Below, piece by piece: positions 2,202 to 37,964 of a stretch of 64,000 bases of DNA. The notes beneath the pieces were generated by a model. It made no database searches, was not told where the DNA came from, and worked only from the letters and a program-made list of their open reading frames with translations. Position 1 is the stretch's first letter. Each line of letters opens with the position of its first letter. Both the position numbers and the translations under genes were made by a program. Source of the DNA: an uncultured Pseudomonadota bacterium (GTDB lineage: Bacteria; Pseudomonadota; Alphaproteobacteria; RF32; CAG-239). The stretch is taken from assembly GCA_902785935.1 (NCBI GenBank), contig CADAAN010000003.1, forward strand, positions 33,035 through 97,034. Reading direction: 5' to 3'.

Positions 2202-2825
2202 TCTATCTCTCCTGAAAGGTACACTCTAAATCAAGTATACAAAAAATTTTTTTCAAATGCCACAACAATTTTGACGATATCAAAAAAGAGAGGACATATA
2301 CACTCCTCTCTTTTTTCCCTTTTATTATGACCCATGTCATAATTCACCTCAAAAAAGGGACCTCTTTTGTCTGACATCAAAGATAAAAACCTTTTTCATT
2401 CGCATTTTTATCACCATCAGACACCTTGGATATATGCCTCATTTGGTATTTATCAAGATACATAAAACCAAAGTATATGTCCCGCTTGGTTTTGGCTTAA
2501 AAAAATTTGTTTACAATTTTAAATTTTTATGATACAGTCAATTCCAGATATTAAAGCTGGGGCTTTTTTATCAAGTGCTCAAAAAGGGCACGGGGCTTAC
2601 AACAGCCTTGATGATACGCAGTGAAGATAACACTGTTTTTGTGGTGTTGTTTTTTTTATTTTAAACAACGTTTATCCCGAAAAAGAGTCGGGGTACTGAT
2701 AATGAATGTACAAGGCATTATCCTAAAGATTATCGGAATCATTTCGTATCATATGATTGTTGTATACCCCGTCGCTCCTGAAAGACGCGACTTTTTTAAT
2801 TTTTAATAAAACCAGGAGAAACTTT

Positions 2826-3437
2826 ATGAAATATAGAAACGAATCAGGCAGAAGTATGGTTGAAATGCTCGGTATGCTGGCCGTTATCGGGGTGTTATCG
2901 GCGGGCGCACTCAAAGGTTACAGCGCCGCAATGTTTAAATACAAAATGAATCAAACGATTGACACGTATAATCAAGTCCTTCAACGCTTTATGGAATTAG
3001 AGCAAAAAGGCTGGAAAGAAGGTATTGAGATTTATGATGCCGAAGATTTAATCAAATACGGGCTTTTACCGGATTGTCAGGTAATAACAGATTCTTATGG
3101 AACAGAGGTTTGCAAACTTCCGATAGGAACATTGGGTATGGGTTTTTATGATAACGGTTCATATGTTTTGGGTGAATTTAGAATATATTTCACCGATTCA
3201 AAATCGTGTATTGCTTTTGCCTCTGCAGGATGGGAAAAGGCATCTCCGGTTGAATGGTGGAATAAACCGGCAGAAAATTATCAAGGCGGATTTATACAAG
3301 CAGGAAGCAAGGACATATACTGGCCTGCAGAAGGTATTACGGAAGTTAAAATGTCTGATATCATCGAGGGGTGCCAGATATGCGAAACAAACTTAGACAC
3401 TTGTTATTTTTATCATGTTATCAGAAATGAATTATAA
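2826..3437 (+). CDS. Type IV pilin-like or pseudopilin-like protein with a prepilin-type N-terminal cleavage/methylation motif
   Basis: AGGAGA RBS then ATG at 2826. MKYRNESG|RSMVEMLGMLAVIGVLSAGAL gives a G at -1 and an E at +5 of a class III signal peptide, followed by a hydrophobic helix. There is a C-terminal Cys pair (CQICETNLDTC). No pilus assembly genes are adjacent. Confidence 0.6.
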   Translation: MKYRNESGRSMVEMLGMLAVIGVLSAGALKGYSAAMFKYKMNQTIDTYNQVLQRFMELEQKGWKEGIEIYDAEDLIKYGLLPDCQVITDSYGTEVCKLPIGTLGMGFYDNGSYVLGEFRIYFTDSKSCIAFASAGWEKASPVEWWNKPAENYQGGFIQAGSKDIYWPAEGITEVKMSDIIEGCQICETNLDTCYFYHVIRNEL

Positions 3438-8634: not shown

Positions 8635-9108
8635 TCACTCCCAATCGGCAAAATTAAAATTGGTGAGATTAATGACTGTTTTGTGCTTTTTGAGGGCATA
8701 TCTGACGGCGCAATAAGCTCCGCCGATACCGTCGACGTACGAAACGATAAAATCCGCACAATTAACCATATATTGATTGCGCGCGACAATGGCATAACGT
8801 CTTTTGCATCTTTCGACACTGATAGGATAGTCAAAAGTATCATATGGCGGCAAAGGCTTGTATTGCATAAGTTGTGAACCATAAGCCAAAATCAGCCATG
8901 TTCTGATGAAAGGATATTTTTCTTTCAAGTCACGCACAACAGTTCCGGCAATCACGTCAAAAGCGCCATGACCACCCACATAAAACGTATCGACCCCTTC
9001 TTTTTCAATCAAGACGGAAACGATTGTTTTCAATCTGTCAATCCATTCTTCCTGATAGCCCAGATTAAAAGGCTCCCTGTGACCGAAAAAAGCACAAACT
9101 TTTCCCAT
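8635..9108 (-). CDS. SLOG-fold YpsA/DUF1273-like protein
   Basis: CAFFGHREPF...YVGGHGAFDV (GGxGxD Rossmann-like motif) with overall YpsA-like length and pattern. Assignment is tentative. Confidence 0.4.
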   Translation of the reverse strand: MGKVCAFFGHREPFNLGYQEEWIDRLKTIVSVLIEKEGVDTFYVGGHGAFDVIAGTVVRDLKEKYPFIRTWLILAYGSQLMQYKPLPPYDTFDYPISVERCKRRYAIVARNQYMVNCADFIVSYVDGIGGAYCAVRYALKKHKTVINLTNFNFADWE

Positions 9109-9435
9109 TTTTTATTTCCCTGTAAATAAGATTAAAACAAAAAACCACCTCAAAAAGGCGGTCAGGGCGTTCAACAATCACACACTACAATGACTCTCAT
9201 GACCTTTAGGAAAAACCCTTGTACATTCGTCACAAGCACCCCGAACCATTTCTGTCGGGGATATAATTATTTTTGGCAGATATCCAACTGCCAGTAGCGT
9301 AAAGGTCGTTGAAAACCCCGCACCCTTTTCGGGCACTTGATAAAAAAACAAAAATTTTTCTACCCAATCTTATTATCATAAAAAAACAATCTCTTTGTCA
9401 AGAAAAATTTAGCCTCACCTCAATAAAAAAGCAAA

Positions 9436-15360: not shown

Positions 15361-15723
15361 TCAGGCTTTTTTGAGTTCGCGCCGACCTAAAACAGCGTTG
15401 ATGTAATCAAAATTTTTAAAGGCACCGTATGCCGCATCAAAGCTTTTTTGATCAAGTGTATAAAAAACCTGATTTGCCATTTTTTTGATAGCACTGTCAA
15501 TGCGCGCAAAAGCCTCGTTATAATCTGCATTATAGCGATTTTTATCTTTTTTAGCCACCAGATTGTGATAAGCCGCAACGACTTTAACGGTTTCTTCAGC
15601 CGGATTTTGATAACCTTTTTTCTCAAAGTCATGCATAATTTGTGCCATCGTCATGTAGTAGCACTTGTTTGTTAAGATATTTCGCTGCATATGGTTATTT
15701 GAATTGATAATCATACCGACCAA
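15361..15723 (-). CDS. Hypothetical protein (120 aa)
   Basis: ORF only; no recognisable motif. Confidence 0.35.
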   Translation of the reverse strand: MVGMIINSNNHMQRNILTNKCYYMTMAQIMHDFEKKGYQNPAEETVKVVAAYHNLVAKKDKNRYNADYNEAFARIDSAIKKMANQVFYTLDQKSFDAAYGAFKNFDYINAVLGRRELKKA

Positions 15724-15792
15724 AACCTTTCCATAAAAAGATATATAGCATTTTTAACAAACATTTGCAAGCAAAAATTTGATTTTTTCAAA

Positions 15793-18991: not shown

Positions 18992-19214
18992 TTGACAATA
19001 TACTCTATTTATGTGATAATCAAAGCGTAACCAAAATGGTTGCGGTGTCTAATTAACACATTTGTCGTATAGCTCCTTTAAAAGAGGAGTTTCTGAGATA
19101 AGTGCATTTTGCATCGAATAAAGAAGACTGTACGACAACAGTTAATTAGCTCCTCCGTTTTAGGTTATTTGAAACGGAATTTTTTTTAAAGTATGAAAAA
19201 ATAGGAGAATAAAT
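18992..19214 (+). promoter_or_regulatory. Promoter (TTGACA-17 bp-GATAAT) plus a conserved ~190-nt structured 5' leader shared with the paralogous gene at 36749-37612
   Basis: Position-by-position similarity to the reverse complement of 37613-37809. Hairpins (aaccaaaatggtt; ctcctttaaaagaggag) are conserved or covarying. Confidence 0.5.
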
Positions 19215-20007
19215 ATGAGAAAAAGTCAATTTATATTTGTATTAATGCTTAGCACAGCTTTAGGTTTAGCAAATGTTTATGCCGGCGGTTCGTGCGCACC
19301 TGATGGTGACACAACAAGCACATGCCATTGGGAAATTGAAAACAGAGTCCTGACAATTTCGGGTTCAGGTGCGATGGTGAATTATAGTTCACCATCTATG
19401 TATCCTTGGTATTCACAAAAAGATTCTTATACATCCGTTGTGGTTGAGGGAGCTAATGAAACAACAGGAACGACAGGTGTTACTTCAATCGCAAAAGTGG
19501 CATTTCGAGGCAACAACCTGACCTCGGTTGTGATTCCCGATTCTGTTACTTCAATCGGACTGGGTGCATTTTATAGCAACAACCTGACCTCGGTTGTGAT
19601 TCCGGATTCTGTTACTTCAATCGGAAGGATGGCATTTTGGGGTTCTCAAGCAACGGATTTAGTCTGCAGTGCCGAAAATTTGCAAAGATATTTGGGTGCA
19701 GCTGGCGCATTTGTAAATTCGGGCGACATTAACCTCTCTTGCACAACAGGCATTTGTAAATTCGGGCGACATTAACCTCTCTTGCACAACAGGTGATTGT
19801 CAAGCCGTTTTGGAAGCTTGGGATACAGCAAAAGGTACAAATTACGCATCGCGCGCAAAAACAATCCTGACAAATCAGGACGGAAGTAAGACAATTTACG
19901 ATTTGAGCGGAAATTTGCTCGGCTATAAAGGCAAGCGCATTTACACCGTTGAAGAGGCCAATCAAGTTGCAGGCAAAGTCAATTCGGTCAAGATAAGGTA
20001 TCGATGA
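19215..20007 (+). pseudogene. BspA-type leucine-rich-repeat secreted protein, disrupted by a frameshifting 43-bp tandem duplication
   Basis: Signal peptide, BspA-like LRRs (VVIPDSVTSIG... twice), a stop after the duplication, and the C-terminal conserved domain (KRIYTVEEANQVAGKVNSVKIRYR) continuing in another frame. Removing one 43-bp copy restores a 249-aa ORF. Confidence 0.65.
19708..19793. repeat. Perfect 43-bp tandem duplication (catttgtaaattcgggcgacattaacctctcttgcacaacagg x2) inside the LRR gene
   Basis: 19708-19750 is identical to 19751-19793. 43 is not a multiple of 3. Confidence 0.85.
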
Positions 20008-24399: not shown

Positions 24400-24508
24400 A
24401 AAAACACCCCTTTATCTTTTGCGATAAAGGGGCTTGTTTTATGATATCAAAAAATAAAAATATATTTCCTTTATTGTTTTTTAAGAAAAACATTTATATA
24501 ATATTTTC

Positions 24509-24700
24509 AGCACTGAAAAGTGCGGGGCTTCTAAAAGTCTTACCATACACGGCAAAGGATATGTGCCGTAAAAATATATCCCCGATGATGGCTCGGGGAG
24601 CTTATAGCGTATGTTCAAGGATTTATCCTAAAGGTTATAAGAGTCAGCTCGTAATGATGATTGTTTTACTCTCCGACCGCTTTTTAAAGTGGTCTTTTTT
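24509..24700 (+). ncRNA. Candidate small RNA or cis-acting leader, copy 1 (predicted transcription start to terminator)
   Basis: -35 at 24474-24479, -10 at 24497-24502, hairpins gcac-tgaaaa-gtgc, cggca-N9-tgccg, ccccga-N7-tcgggg, terminator at 24675-24700. Confidence 0.35.
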
Positions 24701-24795
24701 CTTTAACCACAGTCTAAGGAGAATAAAATGATATCAAAAAATAAAAATCTGTTTCTTTTATTGTTTTTTAAGAAAAACATTTATATAATATTTTC

Positions 24796-24984
24796 AGCAC
24801 TGAAAAGTGCGGAGTTTCTAAAAGCTCTTAACTACTCGGCAAAGGATATGTGCCGTAAAAATATATCCCCGAATTTTTGGTCGGGGTGCTTTCAGCGTAT
24901 GTTCAAGGTTTTCCCAAAGGCTGAAAGGTCATTAGTAGTTATGATTTTTAGACTCTCCGACCGCTTTTTGAGTGGTCTTTTTTC
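24796..24984 (+). ncRNA. Candidate small RNA or leader, copy 2
   Basis: -35 at 24761-24766, -10 at 24784-24789. Same hairpins with loop changes (ccccga-atttttgg-tcgggg). Terminator at 24959-24984. Confidence 0.35.
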
Positions 24985-25078
24985 TTTAACCACAGTCTAA
25001 GGAGAATAAAATGACATCAAAAAATAAAAATTTGCTTCTTTTATTGTTTTTTAAGAAAAACATTTATATAATACTTTC

Positions 25079-25210
25079 AGCACTGAAAAGTGCGGGGCTT
25101 AAAACAGCCTTACCATACACGGCAAAGGATATATGCCGTAAAAATATATCCCCGATGATGGCTCGTATGATTTTTAGACTCTCCGACCGCTTTTTAAAGT
25201 GGTCTTTTTT
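25079..25210 (+). ncRNA. Candidate small RNA or leader, copy 3 (internally shortened), directly preceding the RBS of the 25238 gene
   Basis: -35 at 25044-25049, -10 at 25067-25072, terminator at 25185-25210. Confidence 0.35.
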
Positions 25211-25237
25211 CATTAATTTTAATGCGGGGAGAATAAA

Positions 25238-25627
25238 ATGATGTCATCACAAAATTGGTCGCTTAACGGGCTTATCAAATACACGGTAGAATATGAAAAA
25301 TACGAACCCATTCTTGATTATTATCTCAAAAAAAGTGTAGATTATTTGTCAGACAGCCAAAAAATCGATGTTATGCAACAAATTGCAAAAATCACTGATA
25401 ACCATATCTCTTTTGCCGGTATTTTGGCCTGTATCTATTTTAAAAACAGTGATAAAAATCCAAAAATTTGCCACCAAATAGAACAACTTGACGGTATGAA
25501 TAAGATATTAAAATACCTTAAAAAATACGTTTCACCAACGACATTTGATGAGGCAATCCAAAACATCGTGGAAGAAAAACTTTATGGTTATTTTCGAAAA
25601 ATAAAGCAAAAAACGTACCTTTTATAA
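25238..25627 (+). CDS. Hypothetical protein (129 aa) downstream of the triplicated leader
   Basis: GGAGA RBS. Its first ~20 nt resemble the start of each repeat unit. Confidence 0.5.
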   Translation: MMSSQNWSLNGLIKYTVEYEKYEPILDYYLKKSVDYLSDSQKIDVMQQIAKITDNHISFAGILACIYFKNSDKNPKICHQIEQLDGMNKILKYLKKYVSPTTFDEAIQNIVEEKLYGYFRKIKQKTYLL

Positions 25628-36748: not shown

Positions 36749-37612
36749 TTATCGATATTTTATCTTAAAGGAATTAACCTCACCCGCCACAAAATTTGCC
36801 TCATCGATGGTGTAGATACGCTTTTTGATATAGTTCGGTGTGCCGATGTCATTTGCTTTTGCATACCACCTGCCTTGATAAAACACATTTCCGTCTGCAG
36901 TTTTTTGATAGGTTACGAGCTCAACGTTTTTATCGGTGTCTTGCAAAAAGGAAATTGCTGCCTTGCACTGAGCTTTAAGATTTTCGGCACAATATAATTT
37001 TTTAAGATTAATCACGCTGGAACCACGAAAAGCCTCATTTGAAATATATGTCACATTTTCAGGTATCACCAATTCTTCTGGTGTGAGAGGAAGTGTATCA
37101 GAGCCGATAAGTGTCAAAGATGAGGGAAGAAGAGAAAAATCCGGATTATTTCTGTAAGAAGCTAAAGCAAAATTTTCAAGTGTTGTTAATCCATCCGGAA
37201 TATTGATTTTTTCTAAGTTTCCAATATTTGCAAAAGCTTCTGCTCTGATGACTTTTAAGCTTTTTGGCAAAGAAACTTCCGAGATGGCATACATATCTTC
37301 AAAGGCATGTGCTCCGACAGATGTCATTCCTTCTTCAATAACAACATTATTTACTCTGCCTATTATTTGCGATTGAGCCCACGGCGCGGGGTTTGAGGTT
37401 GGAAGGCCATATAAACCATCATATCTAAAAGTATATGCTTTCATTTCACCTGTGCCGGAGATTGTCAATGTTGAACCTTCAAATGTTGCCGTGCACGAAC
37501 CCGTTGAATTTTCAGGTGTGCAATCCCATACGCATTTTCCTTGTTCATCACAGTCCGCCATTGCAACAATCGGCAACAAAAGAAACCCTGAAGTCAAAGA
37601 TATTTTTTTCAT
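36749..37612 (-). CDS. BspA-type leucine-rich-repeat secreted protein, an intact paralog of 19215-20007 with the same conserved C-terminal domain
   Basis: Signal peptide MKKISLTSGFLLLPIVAMA, a Cys-rich stretch, LRRs, and C-terminal KRIYTIDEANFVAGEVNSFKIKYR. Confidence 0.7.
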   Translation of the reverse strand: MKKISLTSGFLLLPIVAMADCDEQGKCVWDCTPENSTGSCTATFEGSTLTISGTGEMKAYTFRYDGLYGLPTSNPAPWAQSQIIGRVNNVVIEEGMTSVGAHAFEDMYAISEVSLPKSLKVIRAEAFANIGNLEKINIPDGLTTLENFALASYRNNPDFSLLPSSLTLIGSDTLPLTPEELVIPENVTYISNEAFRGSSVINLKKLYCAENLKAQCKAAISFLQDTDKNVELVTYQKTADGNVFYQGRWYAKANDIGTPNYIKKRIYTIDEANFVAGEVNSFKIKYR

Positions 37613-37809
37613 ATTTTTTCTCCAAAAATTAAAAAAATCACTTTAGAAAAATCCAAAGTGGGAGCTATCAAACTGTAACTGTACAGACAAACTTATTCGC
37701 CACAAATGTGCTTATCTCGTTTACTCCCTATAAGGAGTTATACAGTTAAGGATGTTTGATAGACACCGCAACCATTTTGGTTACACCTTGATTATCTCAT
37801 AATACAAAT
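37613..37809 (-). promoter_or_regulatory. Promoter (TTGACA-17-GATAAT on the minus strand) plus a conserved 5' leader homologous to 18992-19214
   Basis: The reverse complement aligns along its length with the leader of the paralog. Confidence 0.5.
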
Positions 37810-37964
37810 CGATTGTCAACAAAAAAATCCAAAGTGAAATTATGTGATATTTTTATTATAGGACAAATCAAACAGACACTTGATTTTACGCGCAAAAACG
37901 CAAAATGTTTCACGTGAAACATTTTAACATTCCACGCAAAGTTCACACATTACAAATACAGATT

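Follow-up and report, generated by a model that had tools for sequence, protein, structure and literature searches.

The window, that is the whole stretch of 64,000 nt of DNA that was analysed, belongs to a cattle-rumen scaffold and carries two genes for LRR_5 proteins preceded by similar leaders, here called copy A (18992-19188, + strand) and copy B (37819-37631, − strand). Each leader starts at a near-consensus sigma-70 promoter of the form TTGACA-17-(TG)nGATAAT, with 11/12 consensus positions and an extended −10 element. The copy A promoter (18992-19020, +) comprises the −35 hexamer TTGACA at 18992-18997, TG at 19012-19013 and the −10 hexamer GATAAT at 19015-19020; that of copy B (37791-37819, −) has TTGACA at 37819-37814 and GATAAT at 37796-37791. 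A previous sequence-only reading of the window had reported TTGACA-17-GATAAT followed by an alignable leader in front of both genes, and this is confirmed, as the copies can be aligned from the −35 hexamer through AGCTCC. The 64-kb window contains precisely two occurrences of a 25-mer of the 5' hairpin (GTAACCAAAATGGTTGCGGTGTCTA), against zero expected.

Behind each promoter lies a structured RNA core (19023-19153, +, in copy A; 37661-37788, −, in copy B) and, directly 3' of its closing helix P1, an intrinsic terminator, a feature absent from the earlier reading. The copy A terminator (19154-19187, +) is formed by a stem-loop at 19154-19178 and a T tract of eight residues at 19180-19187; in copy B (37631-37660, −) the stem-loop covers 37660-37639 and the tract of seven T residues 37637-37631, with dG −13.1 for both. 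The Shine-Dalgarno sequence (SD) and the ATG follow the T tract at a distance of 26 nt in copy A and 17 nt in copy B. Thus arranged, the gene behind copy A (19204-19775, +) has its SD GGAG at 19204-19207, its ATG at 19215 and an LRR_5 ORF extending to 19775. The gene behind copy B (36749-37623, −), with SD GGAG at 37623-37620 and ATG at 37612, encodes a secreted LRR_5 protein of 287 aa (BspA-type, PF13306, E = 2.6e-20), with homologs in metagenome-assembled genomes (MAGs) of uncultured Alphaproteobacteria.

The LRR_5 gene of copy A is split into a 186-aa N-terminal ORF (19215-19775, +) and a 65-aa piece in another frame (19810-20007, +), the latter carrying the conserved C-terminus of the LRR_5 family (KRIYTVEEANQVAGKVNSVKIRYR). 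It appears to be a frameshifted pseudogene or to reflect an assembly error. A conserved C-terminal motif of ~25 aa, KRIYT[IV][DE]EA...x[IL]RY[RK], is found in nearly all leader-associated LRR_5 proteins, for example at 36749-36830 (−) in the window and at loci L001, L008, L011-L014, L051 and L060. It has no Pfam match and is missing from the pilin-like proteins described below; it may be a sorting or anchoring signal.

Conserved RNA core and its relatives

Folded individually, the two copies adopt a common shape of ~135 nt, in which a 5' hairpin (P0) is followed by two long-range closing helices (P1 and P2) and by the three-way junction that bears P3 and P4. The minimum free energy (MFE) is −54.7 kcal/mol for copy A (z = −6.7; covariance-model scores 158.7 and 138.9 bits) and −54.2 kcal/mol for copy B (z = −6.4; 150.5 and 131.3 bits), with z-scores computed against dinucleotide shuffles. 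P0 (19027-19043, + in copy A; 37784-37768, − in copy B) has the sequence GUAACCA-AAA-UGGUUGC. P1 pairs 19044-19057 with 19141-19153 in copy A (CTAATTAAC/GTTAATTAG, also given as CUAAUUAAC/GUUAAUUAG) and 37767-37754 with 37673-37661 in copy B (CTATCAAAC/GTTTGATAG, also given as CUAUCAAAC/GUUUGAUAG). P2 is GTCGTA/TACGAC in copy A (19064-19072 with 19128-19136, +) and ACTGTA/TACAGT in copy B (−). P3, of the form RCUCC...GGAGU with a variable loop, spans 19072-19090 (+) in copy A, its 5' arm being 19072-19078, and 37738-37723 (−) in copy B, where the architecture is the same. P4 (19091-19125, + in copy A) contains the conserved internal loop GAnAUAAG/CGAAUAA, represented in copy A by GAGATAAG (19095-19102) and CGAATAA (19115-19121). 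In the MFE folds of both copies, CUCC and GGAG are sequestered within helices and do not appear in loops. All elements of the earlier description are recovered, namely the hairpin aaccaaaatggtt (= P0), the blocks cgaataa, ctgtac, cagtt and agctcc, and a second hairpin (= P3), but the fold as a whole is larger than these two hairpins, being a long-range multi-helix domain that includes P1, P2 and P4.

Similarity between the copies is confined to the promoter (77% identity) and the RNA core (73%). It falls to 57% in the terminator, 54% in the spacer and 50-54% in the coding sequence, and to 48% over the 200 nt upstream of the −35 hexamer, where shuffled sequences give 50%. Given flanks at shuffle level and LRR_5 proteins only 24% identical to each other, the similarity does not run into the flanks. 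Uniform extension into the surrounding DNA had been named as the mark of a recent segmental duplication; with flanks and coding sequences at shuffle-level identity, such a duplication is ruled out. A palindrome upstream of copy B resembles the terminator of the der gene. Comparison of the two copies alone already reveals 12 compensatory pairs among 41 predicted, both sides being changed with pairing kept, for instance in P1.

A covariance model built from copies A and B matched further copies upstream of LRR_5 genes in related contigs. This family, here called type I, comprises 22 matches, two of them cut off, and thus 20 distinct full-length copies, all from a narrow clade of related rumen Alphaproteobacteria MAGs and therefore not independent sequences. 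A strict pattern scan with one genome per species returned 12 loci in three rumen MAGs; one of these, RGIG5118, holds ten type I copies once the second matches on L013 and L018 are added to its pattern-scan loci. In each of the 20 copies, a sigma-70-like promoter stops ~5-8 nt short of the structured RNA, and the leader stands directly upstream of, and co-oriented with, the next gene. Most of these genes encode secreted LRR_5 proteins with signal peptides and two encode type IV prepilin-like proteins; another three are either cut off or without assignment. No type I leader accompanies the more distant LRR_5 homologs at L052 and L061-L066, and a scan of viral contigs gave 0 matches. Within the loci sampled, the family looks restricted to a narrow clade. 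A divergent relative (L060:11336-11512, 19.3 bits) has the same architecture, including the terminator, upstream of a 400-aa LRR_5 gene on a different rumen contig.

Known RNA families do not account for these leaders. Scanning the whole window against Rfam 15 at gathering thresholds yielded tRNA only. At E <= 10, the best matches of copies A and B were PyrR (23.8 bits for a threshold of 54) and nqrA-II (23.3 for 55), inconsistent between the copies, and the other type I members showed no consistent Rfam 15 matches. Literature searches on leaders of BspA/LRR_5 genes, riboswitches and rumen RNA motifs found no description of such a motif. The type I leader is a previously uncatalogued structured RNA that belongs to no Rfam 15 family.

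Covariation over the type I alignment is strong. Of all cells at the 42 predicted pairs, 96% are paired, and double changes occur at 25 of these pairs; none of 500 shuffles reaches any of the observed measures, and sliding the partners by 1-3 columns lowers pairing to 37-45%. Together with these controls, the covariation indicates that the RNA structure is under selection. The earlier proposal of a functional cis-regulatory 5'-UTR, for which covariation in further copies had been suggested as a check, therefore gains from both sides, conservation being limited to promoter and RNA and compensatory changes being found first in the two copies and then in 20. The shared 5' region is supported as a functional structured RNA and not as a leftover of duplication. 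An opposite view would deny any RNA function and see in these leaders the 5' regions of paralogous surface-protein genes made alike through gene conversion or a recent duplication, after the manner of antigenic-variation families. Such an origin would suit a multicopy leader upstream of paralogous surface proteins, yet it is hardly credible, since conservation ends at the −35 hexamer and at the terminator, the coding sequences are at shuffle level, the helices change in sequence and still pair, and the leader also precedes non-homologous pilin-like genes.

A second structured leader, type II, was found before LRR_5 genes that lack type I. It is ~215-240 nt long, has its own promoter and terminator, and belongs to no Rfam family; 67 pairs are predicted, with 32 compensatory among seven sequences. 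Window copies are located at 2568-2797 (+), 9130-9343 (−), 24510-24705 (+) and 24797-24988 (+), with a fragment at 25165-25210 (+), and others at L001:9561-9797, L005:4430-4663, L007:8180-8418, L052:9740-9983, L054:9750-9974 and 15549-15784(−), and L061:2328-2550. Their neighbours in the window are a pilin-like gene at ~2826-3437, a 157-aa ORF (8635-9108, −) and, behind a tandem array, 25238-25627. The array (24441-25241, +) consists of three repeats of ~285 nt, each with a type II leader or fragment. A similar mechanical ORF (MISKNKN.FLLLFFKKNIYIIFSALKSA...) overlaps each of them, probably as a spurious reading of the repeated promoter and leader. Type IV prepilin-like N-termini (GRSMVEMLGVLAI[IV]G[IV]LSAGAL) are found in the window gene at 2826-3437 (+), which has a type II leader, and in the genes downstream of the type I leaders at L016 and L017; the Pfam N_methyl score of these proteins, 17.3 bits, is below the threshold of 21.2.

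Both types share a P0 hairpin, a GCGGRG...CYCC closing helix, a terminator, the same classes of downstream genes (LRR_5 and pilin-like) and, as predicted, a competition between the 3' arm of an internal hairpin and the tail. They differ in the core, which in type II is about 100 nt longer, with another sequence and other helices. The type I covariance model detects the 5' module of type II weakly (25.9 bits).

Terminator and alternative helices

An intrinsic terminator is present in all 20 type I copies, with a stem of 8-11 bp, dG from −9 to −16 kcal/mol and 7-9 U residues. The distance from the U tract to the start codon is 17-35 nt in most copies, which leaves no room for a separate promoter, so that the gene can be expressed only by readthrough. 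Since the element ends in an intrinsic terminator, control is most likely exerted over transcription readthrough.

The same features bear on a post-transcriptional role, in which the leader would be an mRNA stabiliser, a translational regulator or a thermometer and the hairpin with its U tract would be leaky or incidental. An SD-like GGAG and two anti-SD-like CUCC blocks could indeed meet the real SD 40-60 nt downstream, and a thermosensor was among the options of the earlier reading. However, a canonical terminator separates structure and SD in every type I copy, and the SD of the LRR_5 gene is not sequestered in the MFE folds. A post-transcriptional element is thus very unlikely, and the thermosensor option has to be given little weight for the same two reasons; the rumen, besides, is thermally constant. 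A leader peptide was rejected after inspection by eye, the copies checked having no start codon at a suitable distance after the internal GGAG.

Nucleotides of the core can pair in two other ways that involve the terminator. The first, called ALT, joins the 3' arm of P3 to the tail of P1. In copy A, the arm GAGGAGT (19084-19090, +) has as partners either the P3 5' arm (19072-19078) or the tail GCTCCTC (19149-19155), and the ALT duplex (−11.9 kcal/mol) takes in 2 nt of the terminator arm. The sequence-only reading had drawn attention to this GAGGAG/CTCCTC pairing as attenuator-like, rightly in that the pairing covaries; its placement of CTCCTC near the ribosome-binding site is to be corrected, the motif lying where P1 ends on its 3' side and the terminator stem begins. 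Covariation was assessed by anchoring each copy on GGAGU in the P3 3' arm and on the last RCUCC at the P1 3' end. With X1 defined as the base preceding GGAG and Y1 as the one following CUCC, the two form a pair in all but one of the 20 copies (GC 10, AU 8, GU 1, other 1), and no shuffle scored as high among 500, nor among 5000 in a separate run. Inside P3, the partner of X1 gives U-A or U-G and is mismatched in four copies, with no covariation. Y1 opens the terminator stem or adjoins it. Over the family, ALT covers 1-6 nt of the terminator arm (mean 2.2), with a duplex energy of about −12.7 kcal/mol, compared with −7.8 for the P3 hairpin. Enforcing it in full-length transcripts costs 3-18 kcal/mol over the MFE.

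ALT recurs outside type I proper. The divergent relative (L060:11336-11484) keeps it with a different sequence, GACUGGAAG:CUUCCAGUC, as 10 bp of −18.3 kcal/mol that reach 4 nt into the terminator. Type II leaders show the same three-strand arrangement in a much stronger form that covers more of the terminator arm: the 3' arm of the internal hairpin, GUCGGGGAG, pairs with the tail ACUCYCCGACCGC well into the terminator 5' arm, over 9-14 bp and with −16 to −22 kcal/mol. These helices covary as well (GGGGAG:CUCCCC, GGGGUG:CACCCC and GGGGUA:UACCCC).

The second alternative, AT, connects P0 with the terminator. The terminator 5' arm is unusually conserved (CC[GA]UUUUG or CC[AG]CUUUG) and complementary, in a single register, to the P0 nucleotides CCRAAAYGG; in copy A, CCGTTTTA (19155-19162, +) is complementary to CAAAATGG (19032-19039, +). 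Across the copies, 88% of cells are paired, against 17-57% when slid, and the mean duplex energy is −8.3 kcal/mol, against −3.8 for shuffled arms. Covariation is weak (32 of 500 shuffles equal it) because both strands are conserved. AT would extend P1 coaxially and excludes both the P0 hairpin and the terminator. For transcripts ending before the terminator 3' arm, seven of the 20 copies have the core with AT as their MFE fold; in three more, this fold is no more than 0.5 kcal/mol away from the MFE, and in the rest it lies 2-8 kcal/mol above it; for copy A, the AT-enforced fold at this stage is within 0.5 kcal/mol of the MFE. Pairing is poor in the L014 copy, and at L060 a P0-like strand is complementary to the terminator arm through another sequence (GGAAAGC:GCUUUCU). 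A helix between the 5' GCGGUG and the terminator arm was set aside, its 4-bp matches with wobbles being too weak and inconsistent. On this sequence evidence, ALT appears more secure than AT, which is plausible but less so. The ground state of the full-length RNA is always core, P0 and terminator, so that any switch would have to be kinetic or effector-driven.

In another reading, the leader would bind a specialised protein, such as a NusG paralog, as with LoaP, or RNA polymerase itself, as with put and EAR. It would then serve processive or factor-dependent antitermination by recruiting a factor or modifying the polymerase, which would read through the adjacent terminator with no small molecule involved. 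Regulators of this kind (RfaH, LoaP, UpxY and EAR) control operons for surface structures, and here too the genes encode surface structures, and every copy has its terminator directly behind the conserved, structured leader. Even with no ligand, the core has a very high thermodynamic stability, and its loop GAnAUAAG/CGAAUAA could, from its sequence, form tandem non-canonical pairs of a type often bound by proteins. Antitermination of this sort is nevertheless unlikely: processivity is not needed for a single terminator adjoining the leader, the covarying ALT helix and the P0:terminator complementarity point to local helix competition, no Rfam antitermination element matches, and no candidate protein was found.

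Promoter, structured RNA and terminator also make a discrete unit that could be a gene of its own, encoding a trans-acting sRNA present in several copies upstream of surface-protein genes and using, for example, its CUCC motifs on target SDs. Multicopy sRNAs with C/U-rich motifs, such as LhrC in Listeria, control envelope proteins, and the strength of promoter and terminator, the presence of ten or more copies per genome and the invariance of the CUCC and GGAG motifs would fit such a role. Against it, no type I copy among the 20 had the position and orientation independent of a gene that an independent sRNA gene should show, and the type II copies, ~15 in number, likewise stand mostly co-oriented and directly upstream of a gene; the short spacer of most type I copies offers no space for another promoter of that gene, CUCC and GGAG are both hidden within helices, and the alternative helices involve the terminator itself. 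An sRNA gene is accordingly quite improbable.

Transcription attenuation as the preferred reading

We consider type I most probably to be a cis-acting transcription-attenuation leader, riboswitch-like in layout, with a probability of roughly two in three that draws on sequence and predicted structure. As in riboswitches, the 5'-UTR contains a conserved structured domain with covariation. The strong sigma-70 promoter would start an RNA of about 160 nt, of which the first ~135 nt would fold into a sensor domain made of P0, the closing helices P1/P2 and the three-way junction with P3/P4 and conserved internal loops. The default outcome would be termination at the terminator directly 3' of this domain. 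We infer that the alternative helices, whose complementarity is described above, act as a switch between two sets of structures. One choice would oppose the P0 hairpin and the terminator to AT, in which CCRAAAYGG of P0 pairs with the terminator arm CC[GA][UC]UUUG as an extension of P1. The other would oppose P3 and the base of P1 to ALT, in which xGGAGU, from the 3' side of P3, pairs with RCUCCy in the tail of P1, the helix continuing into the first terminator bases. A small molecule or an RNA-binding protein would serve as effector, reading the conserved junction and internal loops and biasing the choice of helices, thereby setting readthrough into the adhesin or pilin gene, so that the whole set of leader-bearing surface-protein genes may be switched together. 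What kind of molecule acts as effector, and whether it raises or lowers readthrough, are likewise matters of inference.

A bolder extension, which must be called doubtful, is that types I and II are new riboswitches, either two separate classes or two forms of a single class, with an unusual platform in common. On this platform, the terminator region would be contested by a hairpin located 5' of the aptamer and by an internal one, and the whole adhesin and pilin repertoire of an uncultured lineage of rumen Alphaproteobacteria, with ten or more genes per genome, would answer to one or two signals of small-molecule nature, for instance a second messenger or a metabolite from host or rumen.

If attenuation by these leaders is indeed at work, an uncultured rumen lineage controls a large family of BspA-type adhesin-like proteins, and its pilins, by leader RNA and not by DNA-binding regulators alone, with one reusable RNA module copied before ten or more genes. 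Type I would then be an orphan candidate for a riboswitch or attenuator, combining strong covariation and a clear terminator platform with an unusual association, namely with surface proteins rather than with metabolism or transport. The identity of its effector would reveal the signal that decides on adhesin display, and types I and II would offer a natural experiment on the grafting of different sensor cores onto one expression platform.

Comparison with known systems

Several leader classes share individual traits with type I. T-box leaders, which have a stem I with specifier loop and a conserved T-box antiterminator sequence and precede aminoacyl-tRNA-related genes, were rejected, as copies A and B gave no T-box match at E <= 10 and the gene context is unrelated. 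ANTAR elements consist of two tandem hexaloop hairpins and RAT is an imperfect hairpin of ~29 nt, both overlapping the 5' arm of a terminator. By inspection of the fold, only the long-range P1 adjoins the terminator in type I, and the P0 loop has 3-5 nt; ANTAR and RAT were therefore set aside.

The PyrR attenuator (RF00515) provides a closer parallel, with three layers that would correspond to an anti-antiterminator (P3/P0), an antiterminator (ALT/AT) and the terminator. PyrR is the best, although sub-threshold, Rfam match of copy A, owing to the CUCC...GGAG hairpin and the terminator. The scores (23.8 and 17.1 bits) stay far from the gathering value of 54, the loop consensus is absent, and the genes are of the LRR_5 type and not of pyrimidine metabolism.

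Structured leaders lying beside a terminator and before cell-surface genes are also known from the LoaP leader hairpin, EAR and HK022 put. LoaP, EAR and put bring about processive readthrough of distant terminators in long operons. Type I differs in serving single genes with one adjacent terminator, and it has no Rfam match in sequence or structure to these elements.

RNA leaders that control collagen-binding, adhesin or pilus genes through termination are further exemplified by c-di-GMP riboswitches, one of which lies upstream of the adhesin gene cbpA in B. thuringiensis, as reported (PMC7423583). Copies A and B, unlike these, have another architecture and match neither c-di-GMP-I nor c-di-GMP-II at E <= 10.

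The terminating purine riboswitches are likewise among the systems close in layout. The adenine-responsive ON switch of pbuE has an aptamer with a three-way junction followed by an intrinsic terminator. Type I resembles it in lying in a 5'-UTR behind a promoter, in its multi-helix domain closed by P1 around a three-way junction, in its covarying helices with conserved junction and loop nucleotides, in the terminator directly 3' of P1 and, as predicted, in mutually exclusive helices that share terminator nucleotides. It departs from the purine riboswitches in having no Rfam match and in the length and stability of P1 and P2, which are unusual for a ligand-gated helix. In type I, the candidate antiterminator strand is P0, located 5' of the aptamer, and not the 3' strand of the aptamer itself. 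Finally, type I leaders number ten or more per genome and always precede paralogous genes for surface proteins, never a metabolic or transport gene.
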